Shown one piece after another: positions 5,510 to 58,780 of a stretch of DNA of 64,000 nt. The translations under genes were made by a program, and so were the position numbers. Source of the DNA: Octopus vulgaris (taxonomy: Eukaryota); assembly GCA_951406725.2 (NCBI GenBank), contig OX597827.1, forward strand, positions 30,628,001 through 30,692,000. The letters are read 5' to 3'. Each line of letters opens with the position of its first letter. Position 1 is the stretch's first letter. Below the pieces are notes generated by a model. The model was given only the letters and a program-made list of their open reading frames with translations, made no database searches and was not told the origin of the DNA.

Positions 5510-7420
5510 ACTTTACTTTGATACTTTGATAGGTTTTGGCCATTATTGGCCCAGGCCATGTCTAACTTAATAGCACCACCTGGTGAAGTCTTTCAAGTCA
5601 GAATTTGGGCACTATGGCCCACTCAAGTAGAGAGTTATTGTTTACAGAGACATATCCAGGTGTAGGGGGTTTATCCGGGATTTCTTGAAGGAATCTGTCC
5701 AAAGACTTCTTGAACCCTATAGGGTCAGTTTCTGTTTTAATGTGTTTTGGTGTAATGTTAAAGAGAGCGGGGCCAATTGAGGTGAAATAATTGTGCCGTA
5801 TTGTTGTTATGAGATGAGAGTGCGATTTTTGTTTTGGGCGGATGGCACGGGGCCCAAGCCTTGGATGTACCTTAAAGGTGATGCCAACATCATTTGGGCA
5901 ATGCTGATGGAATATTTTCCACATCATGCAGATGATGTAGCGCTCACGACGACGTTGGAGAGAATAGAGTTTTAGCTTTTCTAGCCGACCCCAATAGTCG
6001 AGGCCTGTCATGCCATCTATCTTTTTTGTGATTGCCCTTTGAGGTGCTTCAACTTTTATGATACCTTGTATTGTGTGGGGAGACCACAGTGGACAACAGT
6101 ATTCAAGGTGGGGTCGGGCAAAAGTGGAGAAGAGAAGGATAATGGTGTGGATATCTCTCGACTGGAAAGTTCTGAGAATCCAGGAACACATTCTGCGGGC
6201 CATGTCAACTTTGGTGTTTATATGAGTGGCCCAGCTTACGTTGTTGTCCACAATTACTCCCAAGTCTCTGATGTTGTTGGACGCCGCGAGAGATTTCACC
6301 TGAAGGAAGGGAGTATGGGAGTTTCAGGGCATCCTCTTTTCCAAAGTGGATTAGCTCAAATTTATCCTCGTTCAGCAGCATATTGTTTTTTTCTGCCCAT
6401 TGGATAACAGCCAGTAGATCTGACTGAAGGCATGTCCGGTCACTCGCCTCATTTATGACCTTCTGTAGCTTGGAGTCATCTGCAAAGATTTTTATGTTGC
6501 TGTGCTTGATGATGTCATTAATGTCATTAATGTAAATGATGAAAAGAAGTGGGCCCAGCACAGTGCCTTGTGGAACGCCACTACTGACTTTGGCTGGGCT
6601 TGATTTTACCCCTTCAACTACAACATGTTGAGATCTGTCTGTCAGGAAACACTTAATCCATTTCAGTAACTTTCCAGAGACACCAATGTTGGATAGTTTT
6701 TTCAATAGGATCTTGTGATCGACCCTGTCGAAGGCCTTACTGAAATCAAGGTAGATGACATCGGTGTTGGAGCCCTCTCCCAAAGCTCTCAAAATGTCCT
6801 CAAAGTGATGCAGGAGCTGCGTTAGGCAGTCCCTTCCATTACGGAACCCATGTTGGTTGGAGATCAGCCGTCTGTTGCTTTCCAGAAATTGGGTTATTCG
6901 AGATCTCACCACCCTCTCAAATACCTTGATGATATGAGAGGTGAGTGAGATCGGACGGTAATTCACTGCAAGGGACTTGTTTCCCTTTTTGAAAACTGGG
7001 ACAACAGACTGGGACAGAAGGTTTTTGGAATATAGCCAGCATCCAGTGAGTTTCTCCACAGATTAGCAAGGGGAGATGCAAGTTGGTGTCGACACACCTT
7101 CAGGAAACAAGCAGGGAACCTATCGGGGCCTACTGCTGAATTGTGTTTTATTTCGTTTATCGCCGCTAAGACATCAGGGGCACTAAACGTTATGTCCGAT
7201 ATAGTGTGTTGGGGGTTGACATCACTGATACAGCCCAGATCGGCCATATCAGGATTGCTGAAAACAGAGCAGTATTGTTTCTGCAGTATCTCGGCCATGG
7301 ATTTGGCATTATCTTGGAGAGTGCCAGTTTCGTCAATTAGAGGGCCTACAGTGGAGACAGTGACCCTGCGTTTCCTCGCAAATGAAAAGAACACTTTGGG
7401 GTTGAGTTTGATTTTTTCAA
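5510..7420 (-). mobile_element. 5'-truncated CR1/L2-group LINE with RT domain and two frameshifts
   Basis: [44 protein letters not shown] and YCCPLWSP across three frames (shifts near 7022 and 6295). Stop at 5598. Short 3'UTR ending in (atcaaagt)-type repeats. Confidence 0.95.
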
Positions 7421-9280
<1,860 letters not shown>

Positions 9281-11252
9281 TTGAAAATTGTCTGCAACTT
9301 TCCCATGAGAAGGAAAGAGCAGACAAAGAAGCCTGGGCTATAGACAACATAAAAACTAACCCCAGAGCTTTCTACAGGTATGCCAAAGAAACGGCTACAG
9401 TGCACTGTAGGATAGGGCCACTCCTTGAAAAGGATGGCACACTCACAGGAAAACCAATGAGGGTAAGTGAAATACTGAATGAACAATTCAAGAGTGTTTT
9501 CACTCCACCCCTTGGGCATTTCCAAATCAGCAATCCAACTGACTTCTTTACCACTGCAGATATAGAATCAGAGGCGGCGACGATAAGTTACATCGAGATA
9601 AAGGAAGACGATGTAATAAAGGCTATAGATGAAATGAAAATAGACTCAGCTACTGGCCCCGATGGATTCCCGGCAATCCTCCTAAAAGTATGTAAGAGAG
9701 TCTTAGCAAGACCACTGCAGTCCCTCTTTCAGAGCTTCCTTGCAGCTGGCAAACTTCCAAGGGGACTGAAGGAAGGTAAAATATGCCCTATTCATAAAGG
9801 AGGTAGCAGAGCGGAGGCAAAGAACTACAGACCTATCTCTCTGACCTCACACATCAGCAAGGTCATGGAACGAATAGTCAGAAGGAAACTAATCACCTTC
9901 CTTGAAGAAAATGACTTGCTGCCTGACACCCAACATGGTTTCCGACCAGGAAGAAGCTGCTTAACTCAGCTCCTGCAGCACTATGACTGGGTGCTGAAAC
10001 AACTGCTCAACCACTCAAATGTGGAAGTCATATATCTCGACTTCGCAAAGGCCTTCGATAAAGTCGATCACGGAATGATATGTCACAGGCTGCGTGATCT
10101 TGGCATAGTTGGAAAACTAGGAGAATGGCTTCACGACTTTCTGAAGAATAGAAGTCAGGTGGTAGTAGCCAATGGCGCCACTTCCATTAACACGCAAATA
10201 ATGAGTGGTGTTCCGCAGGGCACTGTTTTGGGACCACTACTGTTCATAATGGCCCTCTCAGACATGCCCTCAGCCACGCAGAGATCCACGATCACAAGTT
10301 ATGCAGATGATACAAAAGTTTCACAGGCAATACAGAACCCTGAGGACACTAAAAACCTGCAATGTGAGCTGGACGAAATATACAAGTGGGCTGAAAAGAA
10401 TAGCATGCAGTTCAATGCTGGAAAGTTTCAAGCTTTATACTATCAGCATGCAAAACTGAATGCAATACCCAATGAATACACTGGACCCGGAGGGATTGCA
10501 ATCCCAGAGGCACAATCAGTGCGTGCCCTGGGTATTCACATGAGTGATGACGCGACCTTTCATGTACATGTTGCTAAACTGACAGTGAAATGTAGACGGC
10601 TGGCTGGCTGGATTCTTAGAACCTTTAGAACAAGAGAACAAGAAACCATGATGGTCCTCTGGAAGACACTTGTCCTAAGCCACTTTGACTATTGCTCTCA
10701 GCTATGGTCACCATCCAGTGTCAAGTTGATCACAGAACTTGAGGCGATCCAACGAAGCTACACAAAGAAGATAGCCTCTATGCAGAATGTAAGCTACTGG
10801 GAAAGACTCAAGAGATTAAAATTATACTCCCTGGAGCGTAGGCGGGAAAGATATGCCATAATATACATCTGGAAGATCCTGGAGGGAAGTGTCCTGAACT
10901 TTGGCATCGAGAGTTACACAAATGCCAGAACTGGGCGCCACTGCGTGGTGCCTAGGACTCCAAACCTGCCATCAAGATGTAGGACAAGATTCTGTGATAG
11001 CCTGGGCTTCCGAGGCCCACAGCTCTTCAATATCCTCCCGAAGAACCTGAGAGACCTGCATGGGGTGGATACAGATGTCTTTAAAATGAAGCTGGATCTC
11101 TTCCTGTCAGGTGTCCCAGATGAACCAACTTCACGGCAGGAGGGGCAGATGAGGGCAGCTGCATCGAACTCTCTCATGCACCAAATAGCAGTTGCTAGAA
11201 AGCCTTCATGAAGTGAAACCAAGTAGCAACACCAAATGGCGGTGCCCCAGCA
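9281..11252 (+). mobile_element. Young 5'-truncated CR1/L2-group LINE with an uninterrupted RT frame of about 640 codons
   Basis: [57 protein letters not shown]. Stop at 11211. The 3'UTR runs into the N gap. No endonuclease domain. Confidence 0.96.
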
Positions 11253-11352
11253 NNNNNNNNNNNNNNNNNNNNNNNNNNNNNNNNNNNNNNNNNNNNNNNN
11301 NNNNNNNNNNNNNNNNNNNNNNNNNNNNNNNNNNNNNNNNNNNNNNNNNNNN
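11253..11352. other. Assembly gap (100 N)
   Basis: N run. Confidence 1.
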
Positions 11353-12428
11353 GTGACACTTCATCTTCTTTTTCACCTGGCTGAGGTGCTTCCTGCGGTT
11401 TGGGTTGGGGTTGGCATTCCGCCCTTACATGACCCTTCTTGCCGCAGCCGAAGCACCTCGGCTTTCTGCCCTCTACGAAAACTGTTATTCTATCGTCTTC
11501 ACTTATTTTTAGGGTTTCTGGAATCTCCTCCAGTGTTTGAATTTCTGCCTGAATGGCTATTACTATCTGCTGCCCTTTCCAAAATTCCTCCTCCTCTACT
11601 GTGGCCTGGAGGATGTTTATTTTTTCCTCCAGGCGTACCATGACTGCTGCCACCAGACATTCGGCATTTGCCTCTGGCGGAATGTTATTCATCGTGATTT
11701 TCAATGTTCTTTTTCCTCTATACAAGGGGAGGAGAACAATGTTCTCCGCTTTTATTGGCTCCATCGACAGTTTTTTTGCTATCTCCTCTGTTGTGAAACG
11801 CACCTCTACTGTGCCGTATCTCTTTCCTCTGTTGATGTATGTGATCTTGTCCATTAATGGTTTTAAACAATTCTCGATTTTTTTTCCTCAATTTTTTGTA
11901 TCATTTTGGTTGTCGTATTAAAGGTCTTATAGATTATTCTTCTTTTTTCGATTTCTTCATGTTTTTGGGCGTTTGAGACCACTGTCACTTCCGTGCCCTC
12001 TTTTGTAACACAGTCCGCATATTTTTCCAAGTCTTCGACGTTTATTTTTTTGATTTTCTTGCCAGCTACTTCTGAGAATTTTTTTGCTGGTGCTGGTGCA
12101 GGGGTTTCCTTTTTCTTTGGCGCCACCGCCTCTTTTTTCTTTGGCGACACCGCCGGAGATTCTTCTTCACTAGTTACGGGAGAATATGAGATGGGGGATT
12201 CCATCTCGAACAACTGGCTTAACAAGCCCTTGGTAAATCCAAGATAAATGATATTTTTCCCCCACGGAGGGGGGAACACCACCACGAAGTCCTCGCACGA
12301 AGGCTGACTTCAACAGTTGTACAGCAATAAACAAAGACAGGTAGACACACAGTAGAATATAACGGAGAGAATAAATACGACGGCAAAATATAACTTACTA
12401 TACACGCAAATAGCTTTCCTCCATGTGA
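11353..12428 (-). mobile_element. ORF1/gag-like element copy B (CCHC knuckle), one frameshift, cut by the gap
   Basis: ORFs 11863-12285 and 11195-11854 join if one A is added to the A8 run at 11878-11885 (EKKIENCLKPLMDK). Knuckle CFGCGKKGHVRAEC. Colinear with the 364-aa ORF. Confidence 0.8.
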
Positions 12429-12666
12429 TTTTATTACTACCCACAAGGGGCGAACATAGATGGGACAATACAATCGGGGAACTTAAAATAAGAAAGCGAA
12501 TGACAAGAAAAAGAAAAAATAAAAGTAAAAAATGACATATGAAAGAATATTTACAATGAGATGTAAATGCCCACTCGATCCCCGGAATCGAGAGGTTACA
12601 TTTTCGTCACATATATTTCACAAAATTTTCTTTTTTCTCTTCTTTCTTCTCTCTCTTCTCACAATT

Positions 12667-12960
12667 CTATACATATTCCATAATAGCTTTCAATTCTCTA
12701 AAGTCCATCACTGAGCCCTCAGGCAGCCGCTCTCTCACTCGAACACTTGTGTAAAATATTACACTCTCTCCGGCAGCTCTGAGGAACTCAGCGACTCTTT
12801 CTTCGGGGATTAGAGCAGTCTCCTGCCACTGATCGGTCATCCTGTTGACCCATATATGTCCCTCCGTTTTACATGTCAAGTCTTTCATTTCAGGGCAGAA
12901 ATGGAAGGTTACTAACTTGTAGAAGCAGTAATCTTGTTTCCGTCCTACGTTTTCCTTCAT
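12667..12960 (-). CDS. 97-aa ORF after ORF1, unknown function (may be a frameshifted ORF1 C-terminus)
   Basis: ATG 14 nt after the ORF1 stop, in a different frame. Protein-like composition. No APE or RT motifs. Confidence 0.5.
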   Translation of the reverse strand: MKENVGRKQDYCFYKLVTFHFCPEMKDLTCKTEGHIWVNRMTDQWQETALIPEERVAEFLRAAGESVIFYTSVRVRERLPEGSVMDFRELKAIMEYV

Positions 12961-12974
12961 TTTTCTTTTCGGGC

Positions 12975-14069
12975 TTATTTCTTCCTTGTTCTCCTCTCTT
13001 TGTTTCTCCCTTTCTCTCTTTTTGCCTTCTTTTCTTTCTCCTTCCTTCTCTTGTCTTTTTGGTTCTTTGTCTGTTCTCTCTTTCTCTCGTGTTTTATGTT
13101 CCTTTTCTTTTTCCTTTTGTGTGCCGTCTTTTCTTTTCGTTTGATTCTGATCTCTCTCTTGTTTTTTTCCTGTTGTTTCTTTTTCCTTTTTTTTTCCTGA
13201 CTCTGTTTTGGTTCTATTTCTTTCTTTTCTTTTATTTCTTTTTCCTTCATTGACTTATTATTTCCTTTCTCTTGTTGTTTTGTTTCCTTTTCTATGTTTT
13301 CTTTTTCATTTACCGTATTCTTCTTTTCTTCAAGTTCCTGCTCGCACTCCGCTACGAATTCGTATAACGGGCACTCTTTTTTAATGTGCCCCCTTGTCCC
13401 ACACAAGTAACAGTTTGGTTTTCTCCCCTCTACAATTACACTGAGGGTTTTTTCCTCTTCAATTTCAATTCTGTAGGGGAACCTTTCAATGTCCTCTTTT
13501 GTGGCCATCAAACACAGTTCTACCCCATATCCTCTCCAGTTTACCGCGTTGGACTCCTTAAAGGATTCCACCTCCACTTCCTCTTCTGCTGCTCCTAGAA
13601 TAGCTGTTGCCAGCCATTCTGTTTTCACTTCTGGGGGTATATTCGGGATTTTAACCCGGACCCCTCTTCTTCCCTTGTATGAGGGCCACATTGTAAATTT
13701 TTCGGCTCTTAGTACAGTGGTAGCCAGTGAGGCTGCAATTTCTTCCGTTGCACATCTCACCTCCACCGTACCAAATTTCTTGCCTCTACTCACGTAGGTT
13801 GTTTTCCCCATTATGTCTCCCAGACATTTTTCAATTTCGACTATCTCCACTCTTGCCAGTTTCTTCGTATTTTTGTCTTGGGTTCTGTATGTCACTGTCT
13901 TGCTTTCTTTATCCTCTTTTGCTTTCGCGGGGGGGATTAGCTTCACGCTATCACCCTCCCTTTTGAAGAGCTTTTCATATTCTTTGAGTTTATCCTTCTC
14001 AAAGAAAACATCCTTTATGATTATCGACGAATCATTATTTTTCCCGGTGACCCCCGCGTAAGTCGCCAT
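12975..14069 (-). CDS. L1/Tx1-type ORF1 (gag-like) nucleic-acid-binding protein
   Basis: Intact 364 aa. N-terminal TYAGV, RRM-like GKKFGTVEVRC region, CX2CX4HX4C knuckle CYLCGTRGHIKKEC, K/E-rich tail. Confidence 0.82.
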   Translation of the reverse strand: MATYAGVTGKNNDSSIIIKDVFFEKDKLKEYEKLFKREGDSVKLIPPAKAKEDKESKTVTYRTQDKNTKKLARVEIVEIEKCLGDIMGKTTYVSRGKKFGTVEVRCATEEIAASLATTVLRAEKFTMWPSYKGRRGVRVKIPNIPPEVKTEWLATAILGAAEEEVEVESFKESNAVNWRGYGVELCLMATKEDIERFPYRIEIEEEKTLSVIVEGRKPNCYLCGTRGHIKKECPLYEFVAECEQELEEKKNTVNEKENIEKETKQQEKGNNKSMKEKEIKEKKEIEPKQSQEKKRKKKQQEKNKREIRIKRKEKTAHKRKKKRNIKHERKREQTKNQKDKRRKEKEKKAKREKGRNKERRTRKK

Positions 14070-14489
14070 GACTAGAGGGTCAATTCACCTTCTTCGGAAC
14101 GTTTCCACACGTGGAGGCAAACGCCTCGCGCGATATTAATCAATTTACACAGAAAAAATTTCACCGTCTAGTCACAGATAACAACACGCATAGATTTCCG
14201 ACACGTGTGAAAATCTTTTTTCTCTACATTGTATACTTTATAGACAATAGCCTTTTCTTTAATTTAATTTTTTATTATCCATCTGGACTATTCCATTTCT
14301 GCATGCTAATTTTATTTTTAATTTATTCCCATTCATGTGAAACCACTTATTCAAGTTCAAGTCATTGATGCAATTTTATACCAATTGCTATTTTTACTTT
14401 TGTTATGTTACGATTATATTATACTTTAGTTTGATTTTAATTATTACTTACTACATATAATTCAATTGTTACTATTATTTTTATTGTTA

Positions 14490-14751
14490 AAGTGAAAGTA
14501 TATGACATAAAATAGAGAAATGTTTTTGTTTCACTTTTAACACGTAATACTGAAATAGTGGAGGAGATATGATATTGCTATGGGCTCGCTCTAGGCAAGA
14601 AGTTGAATATTTTTTTTGCCGATGACACTCCCCGGACCCTAAGTAAGGCATGTGTAAAATTTGAATGAAATTGGTTGCGTAGTTCTCAAGTTTTAGGGCA
14701 ACACACAAACAGACAGACAGACACACATTCTCAGTTTTATATATATAAAGA
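14490..14751 (-). mobile_element. Non-autonomous Helitron-like 5' end
   Basis: Minus strand a|TCTTTATATATATAAAA followed by (ctgt)n and caaccaatttcattcaaatttt. No convincing 3' CTRR end. Confidence 0.55.
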
Positions 14752-14957: not shown

Positions 14958-15340
14958 TAGTTTGTGGCATATCATACCATGATCCACCTTGTCAAAAGCT
15001 TTTGCAAAATCAAGGTAGATTACGTCCACATTTAATTTGTTGAGTAACTGCCTCAACACCCAGTCATAATGCTGTAAGAGCTGGGTCAGGCAGCTCCTAC
15101 CTGGTCGAAAACCATGCTGGGTATTACTCAGCAAGTTATTTTCCTCAAGGAATGCGATTAGTTTCTTTCTGACTATCCGTTCCATGACTTTGCTGATGTG
15201 TGAAGTCAGAGAGATAGGCCTATAGTTTTTGGCATCTGCTCTACTTCCCCCTTTATGTATTGGGCATATTATTCCCTCCTTCAGCTTGCTTGGCAGTTTG
15301 CCATTTGCAAGAAAGCTCTGGAAGAGAATCTTGAGGGGCT
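14958..15340 (-). mobile_element. Internal RT fragment of a LINE related to the 9281 element, with microsatellites at both ends
   Basis: Open frame PLKILFQSFL...[10 protein letters not shown]...[15 protein letters not shown], highly similar to the 9281-11211 protein. Confidence 0.93.
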
Positions 15341-16880: not shown

Positions 16881-17067
16881 GTAAGCATTTGCTGTACTCC
16901 ATCACTGAATGCAAGATTCAGTGTCACAGCAGATGGTTAGGCAGCTCTGGAGGTGTTTCAGTCACTTCCATTGCAACAGCAGGGCAACCTAGGGCCACTC
17001 ACTGATGTAGGTGACAAAACTCCAGCACAACAGTGTGAGCTTTATTGAGTCTGGGCCAGATGTTTCT

Positions 17068-17277
17068 TATTTCTTTATTGCCCACAAGGGGCTAAACATA
17101 GAGGGGACAAACGAGGACAGACAAAGTGATTAAGTTGATTACATCGACCCCAGTGCATAACTGGTACTTATTTAATCGACCCCAAAAGGATGAAAGTTGA
17201 CCTCGGCAGAATTTGATCTCAGAACGTAAAGACGGACGAAATACCGCTAAGCATTTCACCCGGCATGCCAGCTCGCC
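17068..17277 (-). mobile_element. SINE family A with gccccttgtggg tail and TSD
   Basis: TSD agatgtttct at 17058-17067 and 17278-17287. Confidence 0.9.
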
Positions 17278-17439
17278 AGATGTTTCTACCATCCTCACTG
17301 CTTGATCTTGCTGTGCCACTCATCTTCTGTCTTGAGACAGTATAATGACTTGTTTTCTCAGCATCTTTTGCACTCCACTGCTCTCACAAATGAGAATACT
17401 AAAAATGAACCGAACTGGTTTCAAAAATTAAGTTAAAAA

Positions 17440-20194: not shown

Positions 20195-20330
20195 TGACTG
20201 GTACTTTATTTTATCAACTCCAGAAGGATGAAAGGCAAAGTTGACCTCAGCAGAATTTGAACTCAGAACATCAAGAGACAAAAAAAATGTCACTAAACAC
20301 TTTATCTGATGTTTCCACCAGCTTGCCATC
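20195..20330 (-). mobile_element. SINE family A
   Basis: aaggatgaaaggcaaagttgacctcagcagaatttgaactcagaac. Confidence 0.8.
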
Positions 20331-21054: not shown

Positions 21055-21275
21055 AATTCTTCCTACTATGGGTACAAGGCCTGAGATTTTGGGGAAGTGG
21101 GGGATAGTCGATTACATCGACCCCAGTACTACACTGGTACTTATTTTACTGACCCTGAAAGGACAAAAGGCAAAGTCGACCTCAGCAGAATTTGAACTTA
21201 GAACATAAAGCTGGAAGCAATGCTGCTAAGCATTTTGTCCAGCATTCTAATGATTCAGTCAGATGACCACCCTAC
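21055..21275 (-). mobile_element. SINE family A, aggccttgtacc..tagtag tail type
   Basis: Near full-length match to other copies. Confidence 0.85.
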
Positions 21276-31784: not shown

Positions 31785-32168
31785 ATTGGTTTCTTACATA
31801 TGCACCAAGGTCAGAAATATTTTTGTGAGGTGAGATTAGTTGATTAAAAAACATTTCAGTTACATGTGTGGTGCTGATATATATATATATATATATCAAA
31901 CCTAAAAGGATGAAAGGCAAATTAGACCTCAGTGGGATTTGAACTCAGAACGTTGCGAACTGGAACAGATACTGCAAGGCATTTTGTCTGACACCCTAAT
32001 GATTCAACCAATCCACCACCCTTCTGTTAATCCAGTAGTGGTAGTAGTAGTATGATGAATTAATAAGAAAAAATGATTTTGTATATCATTACAAGGCCAG
32101 AGATTTTTAAGGGAAATGTGTATGTGTGTGTATATGTATATATATATATGTGTGTATATGTATATATA

Positions 32169-34414: not shown

Positions 34415-34845
34415 TAATCGTTTCTACTACAAGGAATTTTGGAGGCAAGGGTTTGTCGATTACATTGACCCCAGTGCTCAGTTTTTGCTTATTTTGCTGA
34501 CCCCAAAAGGATGAAAGGCAAAGTTGGCTGCAGTGACATTTGAACTAAGAACGTAAAGACACATGAAATGCCACTAAGCATTTTGCCCAGTATGCTAACA
34601 ATTCTGCCAGCTCACCAACTTAATAATAATAATCCTTTCTGCTAAAGGTACAAGGCCTGAAATTTGGGGGAGGGGACTAGTCGATTACATCGATCCCCAA
34701 TGTTTCACTGGTACTTAATTTATCGACCCCCAAAAGGATGAAAGGCAAAGTAGACCTCAGTGGAATTTGAACTCAGAATGTAAAGACAAACGAAATGCTG
34801 GTAAGCATTTCGCCTGGCATGTAACAACTCTGTTCACTGCCTGAA
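34415..34845 (-). mobile_element. Tandem pair of family A SINEs within (TAA)n
   Basis: Two colinear copies separated and flanked by taa repeats. Confidence 0.88.
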
Positions 34846-35714: not shown

Positions 35715-35748
35715 AATTAATATAAACAGTGAGGTGCAATATAATACC

Positions 35749-35900
35749 TATTTCTTTACTACCCACAAGGGGCTAAACACAGAGGGAACAAACAAGGACA
35801 GACAAACGGATTAAGTCGATTATATCGACCCCAGTGCGTAACTGGTACTTATTTAATCGACCCCGAAAGGATGAAAGGCAAAGTTAACCTCGGCGGAATC
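35749..35900 (-). mobile_element. 5'-truncated family A SINE with gccccttgtggg tail
   Basis: TSD caatataatacc at 35737-35748 and 35901-35912. Confidence 0.9.
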
Positions 35901-36669
35901 CAATATAATACCATAAAGGAAAAATGTTGTCATCACTAATTGTGACTGAGAGAGCCAAAGCACCTGTATTGCAAAAAATAAGAGTTAAAAACTCTTAATG
36001 CTGTAAGAAGCACGCAATGTATATATACATATATACTGACAGGGGAGGTAACCACCCCATGAGTGTCTCTAGGATCACTAGACTAGACTTGTTTTGCCTA
36101 TAAGGCATAGGCTTGTCCAGATCAACAGATTGTACATTATTTCAGCAAGTCAACCAATCAGGACAGGGTTGAATAATTTCAGTTTATCAGCTTGTGAAAT
36201 TGTCTTTGAGTATTAGAATTTATATTTGACGATAGATGTGTGATGAAAATAGGAAACACCACGCGAAGGAAGAGGGGTAGGAAGAGGAAGCTGAGGATGA
36301 GGATAGGGAGCAGGCAATGTAATACATTCAGCAGTAGATTTACAATGGGTGTCATGAGATGCCTATGAGAAGTAATAAAGCCTCCAATTGATTATAAGCA
36401 GTTTTAAGTGAAGAGAATGAAAAGTGAATTTGTTGCCCCAAGCAGGAATCAAAAAGGAAAAACAAAAAACGATTCCCAAACACAACTCACCAGGGGCTTA
36501 CCTCTTGCTCTACACAGCCCAGTAACAAGTGTGATGTTTAGTAATTTATCTGGCCAACAGGTTTTAACTTCAATATACTTTCAACTTTAAACATTTATTT
36601 CACAGTATTTATTAAATACCATAATTTACATTATTATTGATGTATTTGTTGTCTATTATTTTACAACAA

Positions 36670-38342: not shown

Positions 38343-38790
38343 TCCTTTCTAATAGAGGCACAAAGCCTGGAATTTGTTGGGAGCGGGATAGACAATTACA
38401 TCGATACCATTATACAACTGGTATTTATTTTACCGATCCCGAAAGGATGAAGGGCAAAGTCGACCTCAGAAGAGTTTGAACTCAGAACGCACTGACGGGC
38501 GAAATACCACTAAGCATTTCGTCCTGTGTGCTAACGATTCTGCCAGTCCACCACCTTAAAATAATAATAATAATAATTGTTTCTATTATAGGTACAAGGC
38601 CAGAAATTTTAGGGGGAGGGATTATGTTGCTTACATCAACTCCAGTCCTCAACTGGTCCTTATTTCATCGACCCCAAAAGAGTGAAAGGCAAGGTCAACC
38701 TTGGTGGCATTTGAACTCAGAACATAAAGACAAATGAAATTCTGCTAAGCATTTTGTCTGGTTTGTTAATGATTCTGCTAACGAGTCTGC
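38343..38790 (-). mobile_element. Tandem pair of family A SINEs separated by (TAA)n
   Basis: Two colinear copies. Confidence 0.85.
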
Positions 38791-45447: not shown

Positions 45448-45638
45448 CTTTTCTACTCTAGCCACAAGGCCTGAAATTTTAGGGGAGGGGGCAGTCAATT
45501 AGATTGACCCCAGTATGCAACTGGTACTTAATTTATTGACCCCGAAAGGACAAAAGGCAAAGTCGACCTCGGCAGAATTTGAACTCAGAATGTAAAGACA
45601 GACTAAATGCCGCTAAGCATTTCGCTCAGCTTGCGGCC
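45448..45638 (-). mobile_element. SINE family A with TSD
   Basis: TSD ttaaatgaaaaaa(a)tatt on both sides. Confidence 0.88.
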
Positions 45639-46940: not shown

Positions 46941-47155
46941 ATCCTTTCTACTTTAGGCACAAGGCCTGACATTTGTGGGGCAGGGGATAGTCGATTACAC
47001 TGACCCCAGTACTTGATTGGTTCTTAATTTATCTACCCCGAAAGGATGAAAGGCAAAGTCGATCTCAGTGGAATTTGAACTCAGAACATAGCAACAGGTG
47101 AAATACTGTTAAGCATTTCATCCAGCCCTGTAATGGTTCTGCCAGCTCACTGCCT
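46941..47155 (-). mobile_element. SINE family A within (TAA)n
   Basis: Full-length match with taa arrays on both sides. Confidence 0.88.
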
Positions 47156-50705: not shown

Positions 50706-52678
50706 TCAATTAATAAACAAAAAACTGCTCCCTAATGAATTCATCCCATTCGGTCTGTGCAGGGCTCCAGCAAGGAAGTTAGCATCTTGAGCAAATGTAT
50801 TAGATTTGCTCTGCACTTTATGCTGCAGTTTGCGCAGGAGTTCTGAGGCTGGTGTGCTCAGAGCAAAGCTACTGCTAAAAAGATTCATACCAGATGCATC
50901 ATATTGAGGAGGCAGTCCATTGCCATATTGTTGCAGCCAAACCGAATTCAGTGGTTTGCTGTCATTTTTACCATTATTCTTAGAATTACTGCCACTGCTG
51001 CTGTTGCTGTTGGATTTTTCAGTTTTTATAGAATTGTTGCTACTGTTGGAGATGATGTTTTTGGGGACGCCACTGCTGCTGCTGCTGTTGCTGCCACCAG
51101 TATTGGTACTGCTAGCAGAACCTGCAACAGTGGAGCCAACCCCACTGCTACCTGCACCAACTGCTGTGCTAACCCCGGAGCCAACAGATATGGGATTTGT
51201 GATGCTTGAGTCCTCAGAGGATGTGTTGTTGTTGATGACAATATTATTATTATTATTATTACTGTTGCTGTTGTTATTATTGTTATTGTTGTTGTTGCTG
51301 CTGTTGTTGTTGTTGTTAGCTTCGTTTTGTAATTGAGATTCTTTGATTTTCTTCTGTCGCAGTAGATGCCTCTCTTTAACCTTATACTCCAATGTAGAGT
51401 GTGGCACACCATAGTAGCTGCCTGCACGATGCACACTCATTTCTCCACGCTGAACAGCACGTACGGCTTCCATTAACAGTTGACTGTTGTATTTGCGATA
51501 TTGGCCACGCTTGGGGCGGGTTTTTTTCACAGGTTTGGAATTGTCAATAGCACTTTCTGTTGCTTTTTTATCTAGGCTCACAGATCTCTTCATTTTCTTG
51601 CTGGCTACCATAGAAGAAACATTGGATCCTGATGAAGAATATGTCTTGCAGTTGCTGTTATTGTTGTTGCTGTTGTTGTTACCAGGATGGTTCTCATCCT
51701 GTGTGCTACTGAAGCTATCCCCTTGATGCTTACGCTTGTAAACCTTTTCTGAAATAGTCTTCACAATGATGTCTTTGAGGGCATCACCGATCTTCATGCT
51801 GTCATAAGGCCGTTCCTCAACTCCACCAGTACTGTCTGTGTTGCTGTTGTTGTTGTTATGGTTATTGTTGTTGTTTTGTGTTTTTGCAGGCCGGTAGGAC
51901 GGAATTTTCAAGGACATAAGTCTGTAACTGGGATTCGGTTCCACAGTTTGGGTGCTGGAGCAGTTACTCATGGACTGCTGTTGCCGCTGCTGTCGCTGAT
52001 GATGGCGGTTTGCCTCATGTGGTTGACGAAGAATTTCTAAGGCAACTGGTGACTTTGTGTTTGAGGATTTATGCTCACTAAGGAGACGCTGCTCGGTCAT
52101 TTTACGCACCAGTTCATGCAACAGAGGCAATTTGAAATCAGTGTTCAGTGCACTATTATCATTGTTATTATTATTATTATTACTATTATTATTATTAGTA
52201 GCAGTAGTAGTAGGAGGAGTAGTAGTAGTTGTAATATTAGTAGTGGTATTAGGGTTAATATTATTAATATGGTTATTTGTAGTACCAACTAGAGAAGGCA
52301 GTTTCTCATATTTTACATCTGCTGAGGCGCCATTAAGGTTGTGCTTACGTCGGATCTGATCAAGCTTCTTTTCCCAGTCATCTTCGGAGTGTAGCAGAAA
52401 GTCACGTGAATTCGAAAGGCTGTTCATCACCACAGGAGGGAGCAACAAACTATAAGGAGACAAACGGTTGGGATCTGTTGGAATGGGAGTTGCTGCTATT
52501 GTCGCTGTTGATGATGATGTTGACATAGTAGACATACGTTGCACACTGTTATTATTACTATTATTATTATTATTATTATTATTGTTATTATTATTATTAT
52601 TATTATTAATATTTGCACTCTCAGAATGCTGACTATCTTCACTGCATTCAAGTTCCATGTTTAATACACCTGACTGTT

Positions 52679-52709
<31 letters not shown>

Positions 52710-52917
52710 TTGCTGTTGTTGCTGCTGATGTTTTTGCTGTTGTTCTGTTTCCATTTTGAAAATTTTATTACGAAGAGTAGAACGTGGAATGCCGTAGAGC
52801 ACAGCAGCTCTGCGTGTACCAAGTTTTCCACTGCGGATTTCAAAGACTGCGTTCACCAATTCCTCTTCTGTATAAGCTTTCTTTCCATTCTGAAGGTGAC
52901 TGTCCTTTTTGCATTTC
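50706..52917 (-). CDS. E93: Last coding exon of an E93/Eip93F/Mblk-1/LCoR-like pipsqueak HTH transcription factor
   Basis: Two Psq HTH domains: AYTEEELVNAVFEIRSGKLGTRRAAVLYGIPRSTLRNKI and RPKRGQYRKYNSQLLMEAVRAVQRGEMSVHRAGSYYGVPHSTLEYKVKERHLLR, the pattern of insect E93/Mblk-1. Acceptor tttattcgtatatttcAG ends at 52918 (phase 2). Stop at 50706. PolyQ/N/T/S linkers. Confidence 0.93.
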
Positions 52918-53019
52918 CTGAAATATACGAATAAACAAGGCATTATTGGCCATAAAGACTACATCTTAAATATCTATAATTTGTATGAAATTATACAGCA
53001 AATACTTTTAAAACTATTA

Positions 53020-55369: not shown

Positions 55370-55556
55370 GGGGGTTAGATGACACGTTGGACAAAATCCC
55401 ACTTAATATTTTGTCCATCGATATGTTCTGAGTTCAAATTCTGACAAGATCAACCTTATCTTTCATCCCTTTGGATAAGTACCAGTTGACCACTGGGCTG
55501 ATGTAAACGACTTACTCTCTACCCCAAAATTGCTGGCCTTGTACCAAATCTGAAAC

Positions 55557-57761: not shown

Positions 57762-58780
57762 GTGTAATGCCGGTGGATGTGTAATGCCGGTTGGATGTGT
57801 AATGCCGGTTGGATGTGTAATGCCGGTTGGATGTGTAATGCCGGTTGGATGTGTAATGCCGGTACTCACACTCGGCAGAGTGTAAGTACCTTGAGAGAAA
57901 AGCTGGACCTAAGAAGCATCAGTTGTGGTGTGCAAGAGAGACGTTTGCGCTGGTATGGTCATGTGGCGAGAATGGATGAAGATAGTTGTGTGAAAAAGTG
58001 CCACACCCTAGCGGTTGAGGGAACCTGTGGAAGAGGCAGACCCAGGAAAACTTGGGACGAGGTGGTGAAGCACGACCTTCGAACTTTAGGTCTCACTGAG
58101 GAAATGACTAGAGACCGAGACCTCTGGAAGTGTGCTGTGCGCGAGAAGACCCGGCAGGACAAGTGAGTCCATAACCCGTGGCCTTCTACATGGGATGGAG
58201 CCGGCCTACGTATGCATACCTTCCCTTCTTGGGACACAAAACTCTACTTGTGAAGACGTGTTGAGGCAAGTGAGGATCAGAATCAAAATCGATCAATGGA
58301 AATTGCGGATGTGCTACCAGTGCCGGTGGCATGTCAAAACTCTGCTTGTGAAGACCCGTTGAGGCAAGTGAGGATCAGAATTGAAATCGATCAATGGAAA
58401 TCGATCAATGAAAATTGCAGATGTGTTACCAGTGCTGGTGGCATGTAAGAGAACTTTCCGTTTCGCGACCGTTGCCAGCACCGCCCCGTTTCGTGTCCGT
58501 TGCCAGCCTCGCCTGGCCCTCGTGCCGGTGGCACATAAAAAGCACCATCCGTTCGTGGCCGTTTGCCAGCTCTGTCTGGCACCAGTGCGGGTGGCACGTA
58601 AAAAGCACCCACTACACTCACGGAGTGGTTGGCGTTAGGAAGGGCATCCAGCCGTAGAAACACTGCCAGATTTGACTGGGCCTGATGAAGCCTTCTGGCT
58701 TCACAGACCCCAGTAGAACCGTCCAACCCATGCTAGCATGGAAAACGGACGCTAAACGATGATGATGATGATGATGATGA
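57756..58780 (+). mobile_element. 5'-truncated RTE-clade LINE in the E93 intron
   Basis: RRLRWYGHVARM...GRGRPRKTWDEVVKHDL...RDRDLW. Stop at 58166, long 3'UTR, (gat)n tail, TA flanks. Confidence 0.93.

Follow-up and report, generated by a model that had tools for sequence, protein, structure and literature searches.

An ORF1-only element and a Tx1-type LINE share a poly(A)-less 3′ tail and a target site in Octopus vulgaris, and a SINE subfamily carries a related tail

The window analysed here is the whole 64-kb stretch of Octopus vulgaris DNA, and the 42-nt segment under study begins at its position 12429. The segment lies at the end of an ORF1-only non-autonomous element of 1780 bp on the minus strand (12427-14206), designated family A; the letters A, A′, B-G, I, J and M are working labels for families. 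ORF1 of A (12667-14069, minus strand) is frameshifted in the window, with a stop at 12975; intact copies encode 469 aa, with tandem RRM-like folds and a CCHC knuckle. The reading frame at 12667-13254 was considered as an ORF2 remnant and rejected; it is the frameshifted end of A ORF1. The A tail (12427-12475, minus strand) consists of a pyrimidine-rich block, a small hairpin and an A-rich end, without a poly(A) tract, as judged from its alignment with 20 other tails. Folding and covariation predicted a terminal hairpin with a 4-bp stem and a 5-nt loop at 12439-12451 (minus strand; z −0.65 for this tail alone).

On the 3′ side of A lies a 14-nt copy of the target site (12413-12426, minus strand), which matches the host target and behaves as a target-site duplication (TSD) at other loci; it is the putative landing site of A. 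It is followed by the 5′ UTR and frameshifted ORF1 of a LINE, family B (11353-12412, minus strand), which over 1080 nt shows 95-96% identity to copies reaching ORF2 (L255, L256, L259, L265). The remainder of this LINE is lost in an assembly gap of 100 N in the window letters (11253-11352), which cuts the array. The host is a non-autonomous Helitron-like repeat of 1.05 kb, and its 5′ half flanks A on the 5′ side (14207-14746, minus strand; 93% identity over 552 nt to an empty copy).

The first-pass annotation had proposed that the tail of the ORF1-only element is shared with a SINE subfamily. The three strings on which it relied were found at 12429-12468, from 17073 and from 35754, and the likeness was confirmed: BLASTN within the 64-kb window aligned the tail at 12429 with the two SINE ends over 42 nt (83% identity, E = 7e-6) and 47 nt (83% identity, E = 1.5e-6). 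With one mismatch allowed, an 11-nt core of the tail occurred at three places in the 64-kb window, the same three. The tail of the ORF1-only element and both SINE copies are on the minus strand. SINE copy 1 (17068-17274), with its related tail at about 17069-17128, is flanked by an exact 13-bp TSD (17055-17067 and 17275-17287), and SINE copy 2 (35749-35900), which is 5′-truncated and also has a related tail, by an exact 12-bp TSD (35737-35748 and 35901-35912). These duplications had been described as clean and 10-12 bp long; they are exact, but at 13 and 12 bp slightly exceed that description. Eleven more matches to the SINE body in the window end before reaching the tail (1361-1490, 20197-20276, 21106-21235, 31895-31953, 34455-34595, 34679-34821, 38395-38520, 38617-38754, 45498-45634, 46989-47126 and 55407-55520) and probably represent the same body with other tails. 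Because these matches stop short, the tail is limited to part of the SINE bodies, and the word "subfamily" was correctly chosen.

The element that owns the tail is ORF1-only, as had been claimed, and is present in many copies. A copies are 90-99% identical to one another, and a 34-nt A-tail pattern had 120 exact matches in the genome. In A, the tail starts 228 nt past the ORF1 stop, and ORF2 is absent. The tail was present 3′ of ORF1 at a fixed distance in 28 of 30 A loci (27 by an ungapped test, 1 with an indel), and the two loci without it are broken copies; the 30 loci include the window itself and several share arrays, hence the sample members are not independent. These counts bear on the possibility that a severely truncated SINE inserted between two units and gave rise to the 42 nt. 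Tail likeness alone speaks for such an origin; however, the tail recurs at a fixed distance from ORF1 in other copies and is far nearer to that of LINE B than to that of the SINE, which makes this origin extremely improbable, and we reject it. The segment is the genuine 3′ terminus of A and does not derive from a stray SINE.

The N-terminal region of A ORF1 (residues 20-250) was predicted with pLDDT mostly 74-90, and the best structural matches of the predicted fold were tandem RRM proteins (E = 1.5e-5, with low TM scores). A search with the A ORF1 protein gave at least 150 matches, many at ~1780-bp spacing, which is the period of the arrays; in each protein search, the best 150 of more than 13,000 candidates were scored. 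Homologues of A ORF1 in a protein search were 8 proteins, all under the Octopus label. At least four ORF1-only families with related tails (A, A′, C and E) occupy the same site. A has the features of an ORF1-present non-autonomous LINE, i.e., it encodes ORF1p only, shares its 3′ end with a LINE and is a multi-copy unit with TSDs. It differs from HAL1 proper, a mammalian L1 minus ORF2, in its Octopus-only homologues and its ORF1 with RRM and CCHC motifs.

Full B elements elsewhere in the genome are 5.26 kb long and carry ORF1 and a 1131-aa ORF2. A domain search run on a sister copy (L124) showed that ORF2 of the B group contains endonuclease, RT and zf-RVT domains; the closest solved structure to L124 ORF2 was human L1 ORF2p (E = 2e-69). 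B has the features of the Tx1 clade, namely a CCHC ORF1, an ORF2 nearest to L1 that combines an APE endonuclease, an RT and a zinc motif at the C-terminus, and site-specific insertion into a repeat; the ORF trees hold elements of this genome alone. The autonomous LINE, which had been postulated as an unseen member of the L1/Tx1 group, thus exists and has almost the same tail; it is not unseen, however, for its 5′ part adjoins A in the window.

The DNA of A and B has in common only the last 47 nt (93.6% identity) and 83 nt of ORF1 (73%). Their ORF1 proteins are 34% identical and occupy distant positions on the tree. Because the 47-nt tail is near-identical while the ORF1s are so diverged, A is an old lineage that has kept a tail close to that of a young LINE. 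An origin of A as a recent internal deletion of B, its likely helper, was rejected on the basis of the ORF1 distance and the scant shared DNA.

Helitrons are marked by a 5′ TC start, a 3′ hairpin followed by a CTRR end, and insertion between A and T without TSD. On these terminus features we take the host repeat to be Helitron-like; such termini were seen by eye in most of 7 empty host copies and downstream of 7 arrays, and some ends vary or are disrupted. The 34-mer of the host target had 336 exact copies in the genome. Among 30 exact target sites, 11 had a tail (8 B, 2 A-type and 1 C/E-type) and 19 had none. A and B stack head to tail at the same site within the repeat; HeT-A elements are also arranged in head-to-tail arrays. 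In all seven arrays fetched, the terminal element was B, followed by the same flanking sequence, and A units lay upstream in six of the seven; one array had 22 A units. The 3′ half of the host followed 30 of 40 B loci and was absent at the remaining 10. Following 27 of 30 A-type tails, several of which belong to the same arrays, was a 12-mer with at most 4 mismatches from the host target, vs. 65 of 5000 random positions. Insertions of other families were seen elsewhere in the same host, at a second site within the 3′ half and close to a third, which lies just upstream of the main site (L123, L022, L093).

The duplications are matched to the locus. Where the target carried a variant allele, the allele was repeated in the upstream spacer at 7 of 8 loci; among loci with the common allele, 13 of 22 passed a crude TSD test. 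Spacers often diverge from the target after the first 5-6 nt and differ within some arrays. These data bear on the proposal that the ORF1-only units spread mainly at the DNA level, inside the Helitron-like host or by unequal crossing-over, with the tail as a passive part. The host is multi-copy and of mobile type, and the A units of the 22-unit array are near-identical, with variants in a repeating pattern, as such spread would predict. However, A copies are also found at non-host targets, array composition varies from locus to locus, and the upstream spacers repeat the local allele. DNA-level spread probably accounts for long arrays and not for insertions, and we consider it very unlikely as the main route; the long uniform arrays probably grew by unequal crossing-over as well.

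Four B copies at another target (L261, L278, L279, L286) had 8 shared endonuclease substitutions, of which 3 were absent from the other 36 copies. This subfamily ends exactly as element A does. The substitutions are consistent with a target set by the enzyme. Three other off-site B copies had an ordinary endonuclease and a different tail end, which fits another helper and an exchanged end. In view of the off-site copies and the 10 of 40 B loci without the host 3′ half, target and body do not correspond one to one. At L003, L015, L027, L262, L269 and L270, A or B bodies lie outside the host and carry the last 15-25 nt of another family; at L269 this is the case for both units.

L1-group LINEs are thought to select their RNA mostly via poly(A). 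In many L1/Tx1-type families of this genome, the 3′ terminus lacks poly(A) and is made up of a pyrimidine block, then a small hairpin, then an A-rich end. A G/C-rich version of the hairpin maps to the ORF2 clade of B, D, I and J (with 100 support in a quick tree built from 32 full ORF2s and 88 in a 165-column tree). The consensus of 21 aligned tails has a 3-pair stem with double changes at all three pairs. Covariation of the hairpin was 0.168, vs. 0.087 ± 0.018 in shuffles (0/500); a control slid by +1 was equally high (0.177). The lower stems showed no covariation among the 21 tails. Single folds placed the hairpin at this position in 15 of 17 cases, with z from −0.2 to −3.4, mostly non-significant, and per-tail shuffle tests gave p values of 0.03-0.65. 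The tails had been put forward for folding and a search for covariation; the double changes and the covariation above shuffles speak for a structure, whereas the energies are weak and the slid control scores just as well. A terminal hairpin is plausible. One relative is inserted directly upstream of U2 snRNA genes (L338:6864-7057, L340).

The tail might instead be a mere 3′-processing signal inherited by descent. RNA recognition would then be loose, and likeness of tails would say nothing about partners. The tail contains a polyadenylation-type hexamer, folding is weak, and conservation across the 21 tails is highest in the A-rich end; moreover, a 2012-13 survey knew of only three SINEs with L1-clade tails (PMC3747384). 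On the other hand, no poly(A) tract followed the hexamer in the tails read, the A tail is near-identical to that of B despite divergence of the remaining DNA, and the top stem is preserved through double changes in other lineages. We regard this explanation as unlikely.

A 32-nt pattern of the SINE tail had 41,318 exact matches in the genome. The SINE head shows A-/B-box-like motifs by eye; no tRNA was called by ARAGORN at 4 loci or by Rfam at 2 SINE loci. The SINE has targets of its own. None of 30 sampled SINE tails lay near the host target (none closer than 5 mismatches), and 18 of the 30 bordered directly on SINE head sequence; in a genome-wide scan, only 4 SINE tails were followed by the first five target bases, none of them inside the host. 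The host site of B thus went unused in both the sample and the scan. Some SINE copies form 184-bp head-to-tail arrays of one full copy followed by copies that start within the head (L131-L160, e.g., G000:C1:652595-653178).

Local alignment of the A tail gave scores of 96 with A′, 93 with the B subfamily, 89 with B and 47-50 with the SINE. For SINE copy 1, the scores were 73 with F299, 63 with the B sister L124, 59 with F298, 50 with B and 47 with A (shuffle maxima 20-29); F299, L124 and F298 thus all score above B, which is not the best match. The parts of the SINE tail point to different lineages. Its upstream block matched F298, F299 and F297 at 13-15 of 15 columns and family G at 28 of 30 nt, vs. 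4-6 of 15 for A or B. Its hairpin matched the B/D/I/J clade at 12-14 of 16 columns. The last 11-12 nt of copy 1 matched D, J, C, E and most F rows at 11 of 11, vs. 8 of 11-12 for A or B. F is a separate clade (support 99 in the 165-column tree). By sequence comparison, the SINE carries a related version of the clade-wide tail, in which segments of two LINE lineages are combined as a mosaic.

It had been proposed that one reverse transcriptase serves the LINE, the ORF1-only element and the SINE. In the form considered here, the family B enzyme would move both A and the SINE, and SINE targets would be set by pairing of a 3′ extension of the RNA with the nicked DNA. SINE and A/B tails agree in the hairpin at 13-14 of 16 columns and in the middle part at 12-15 of 16, bases resembling its own head often follow the SINE even at unrelated sites, and B bodies occur at several targets. 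However, the SINE avoids the host target, with only the four partial matches mentioned above; the end of SINE copy 1 is closer to D, J, C, E and most F rows than to A or B, and its upstream block fits F298, F299, F297 and G rather than A or B. In addition, the B subfamily with a changed target has a changed endonuclease. A single enzyme for all three was not borne out, given the clade-wide tail, scores of 47-50 vs. up to 73, and the site avoidance, and we give this explanation a low probability. The SINE most likely depends on the Tx1-type radiation, yet not on the enzyme that serves A. The three-member system proposed at first therefore stands for the pair of ORF1-only element and LINE, but not for the SINE, which probably relies on another Tx1-type enzyme.

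Several candidates for the SINE partner were rejected. F as a direct partner was dismissed because the SINE hairpin was found in 0 of 30 F loci. G shares only the upstream block and is inserted into the head of another SINE, and M shows a weak match and a trinucleotide repeat downstream. Among the loci fetched (best 150 candidates scored per protein search), no non-SINE element had the whole SINE tail; a search for a LINE at the SINE self-insertion site with a non-SINE hairpin base yielded none, all 30 loci being SINE variants. G is a young family with a 1133-aa ORF2; the second SINE that holds it (L325-L336, L344) is one which we take to be CORE-like, and the G tail has its upstream block in common with the SINE studied here. 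M is very young, with ORF2 frames of up to 1145 aa, copies 99% identical (L375-L404) and 5.87-kb tandem arrays.

These findings suggest the following interpretation, which we consider probable. The 42 nt belong to the 3′ end of A, which shares its tail and its site with B and is likely copied in trans by B ORF2p; the SINE probably uses a different member of the clade. Mobilisation of A in trans by the ORF2 protein of B is likely on sequence grounds. In this model, B ORF2p would nick one site in the Helitron-like repeat, and reverse transcription would be primed there on RNA with a recognised poly(A)-less tail. Duplication of 6-14 bp of target would recreate the site on the upstream side, and later copies would then stack at it. 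A would provide its own predicted RNA-binding protein. Less firmly, the recognition signal may be the small hairpin together with the A-rich end, and the SINE tail may have taken its upstream part from the F/G lineage and its hairpin from the B/D/I/J clade. A limit on this interpretation is that the B copy of the window is not traceable beyond the gap at 11253-11352.

A broader proposal, which we advance tentatively and consider rather doubtful, is that the tail is an exchangeable address module of the whole Tx1-type radiation, such that passengers take the last 15-25 nt of a helper and land at the target of that helper. Its basis is the off-target A and B bodies with the ending of another family. 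Reverse transcription would start on the RNA end of the helper itself and switch template in the shared pyrimidine block. The 41,000-copy SINE would be the fossil of a swap from the F/G lineage to the B/D/I/J clade.

The ORF1-only element has counterparts in other LINE groups. ORF1-present non-autonomous LINEs include HAL1 (L1 clade), HeT-A (Jockey) and Ag-Sponge (CR1) (PMC5786205, PMC5753468). Like them, A encodes ORF1p alone, retains a LINE 3′ end and needs a helper; unlike them, it groups with Tx1-type LINEs, and its ORF1 is 34% identical to that of its likely helper. In contrast to HeT-A, A inserts at one site in an interspersed repeat and not at telomeres.

The closest parallel for the target site is among Tx1 elements, such as Tx1-Mar LINEs and SINEU of crocodilians, Tx1L in Tx1D of Xenopus, and Keno, a member of the Tx1 clade that targets U2 snRNA (PMC4494074). 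For SINEU-3 and Tx1-Mar, a mode of target-primed reverse transcription has been reported in which a short duplication restores the site upstream (PMC4494074). As in Tx1-Mar/SINEU, a Tx1-type LINE of the octopus lies in a DNA transposon, passengers occupy the same site, tandem insertions sandwich the TSD, and different Tx1 families probably serve different passengers; the octopus relative that abuts a U2 gene resembles Keno. The octopus system differs in its Helitron-like host, in having protein-coding passengers of the ORF1-only type, and in a partner marked by a shared tail as well as a shared target.

SINEs with an L1-clade tail are represented by ZmSINE2/3 with LINE1-1_ZM and SINEX-3_CR with L1-1_CR (PMC3747384). 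These cases and the octopus tail have in common a shared 3′ end of ~45-50 nt and an L1-clade lineage, and the small hairpin with its compensatory changes has a plausible, weakly folding counterpart in the octopus; the latter differs in being animal, Tx1-type, without poly(A)/poly(T), clade-wide, and mosaic in the SINE. The tRNA-derived SINEs OK, OR1 and OR2 of octopus and the Meta, Deu(Nin) and CORE SINE superfamilies have been described previously (PMC4824008, PMC4758252). By description, the SINE studied here resembles OK/OR1/OR2 in its putatively tRNA-like head with A-/B-box-like motifs, its central domain and its exchangeable tail; the available text of PMC4824008 and PMC4758252 names no L1/Tx1 partner for these SINEs. 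Thirteen recently active L1-Tx1 families were counted in PMC13282606, whose main text contains no description of ORF1-only elements, tails or targets for them. A search confined to published papers found no description of the octopus tail-sharing system. The system appears to be new in its combination; each ingredient has a precedent in HAL1/HeT-A or Tx1-Mar/SINEU.

The octopus presents an animal L1/Tx1-type radiation with a poly(A)-less tail that persists in old ORF1-only parasites and in a SINE subfamily numbering at least 41,318 copies. Its young families have intact ORF2, varied targets and slightly varied tails, and form a natural series for studies of RNA recognition by L1-type RT and of change in endonuclease target. 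A common tail by itself does not identify the partner LINE.

Sequencing runs X8, X16 and X17, labelled as three other organisms, yielded contigs that contain parts of the A tail and of the 5′ region of B (window 11900-12615). One X8 contig corresponds to 12424-12615 without differences; the contigs are uninformative on expression or RNA ends. The window also contains RT-bearing LINE fragments of another type, presumably CR1-like, at 9283-11252 (plus strand), 5598-7416 (minus strand) and about 14960-15320 (minus strand), amid long AT microsatellites; the first includes a 642-aa open frame at 9283-11208 (RVT_1, E = 6e-31). A short open frame at 57768-58166 (minus strand) resembles, in our judgement, the C-terminus of an RTE-type LINE. 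At 50706-52958 (minus strand), a 749-aa open frame with two psq helix-turn-helix domains is probably an exon of a host transcription-factor gene.
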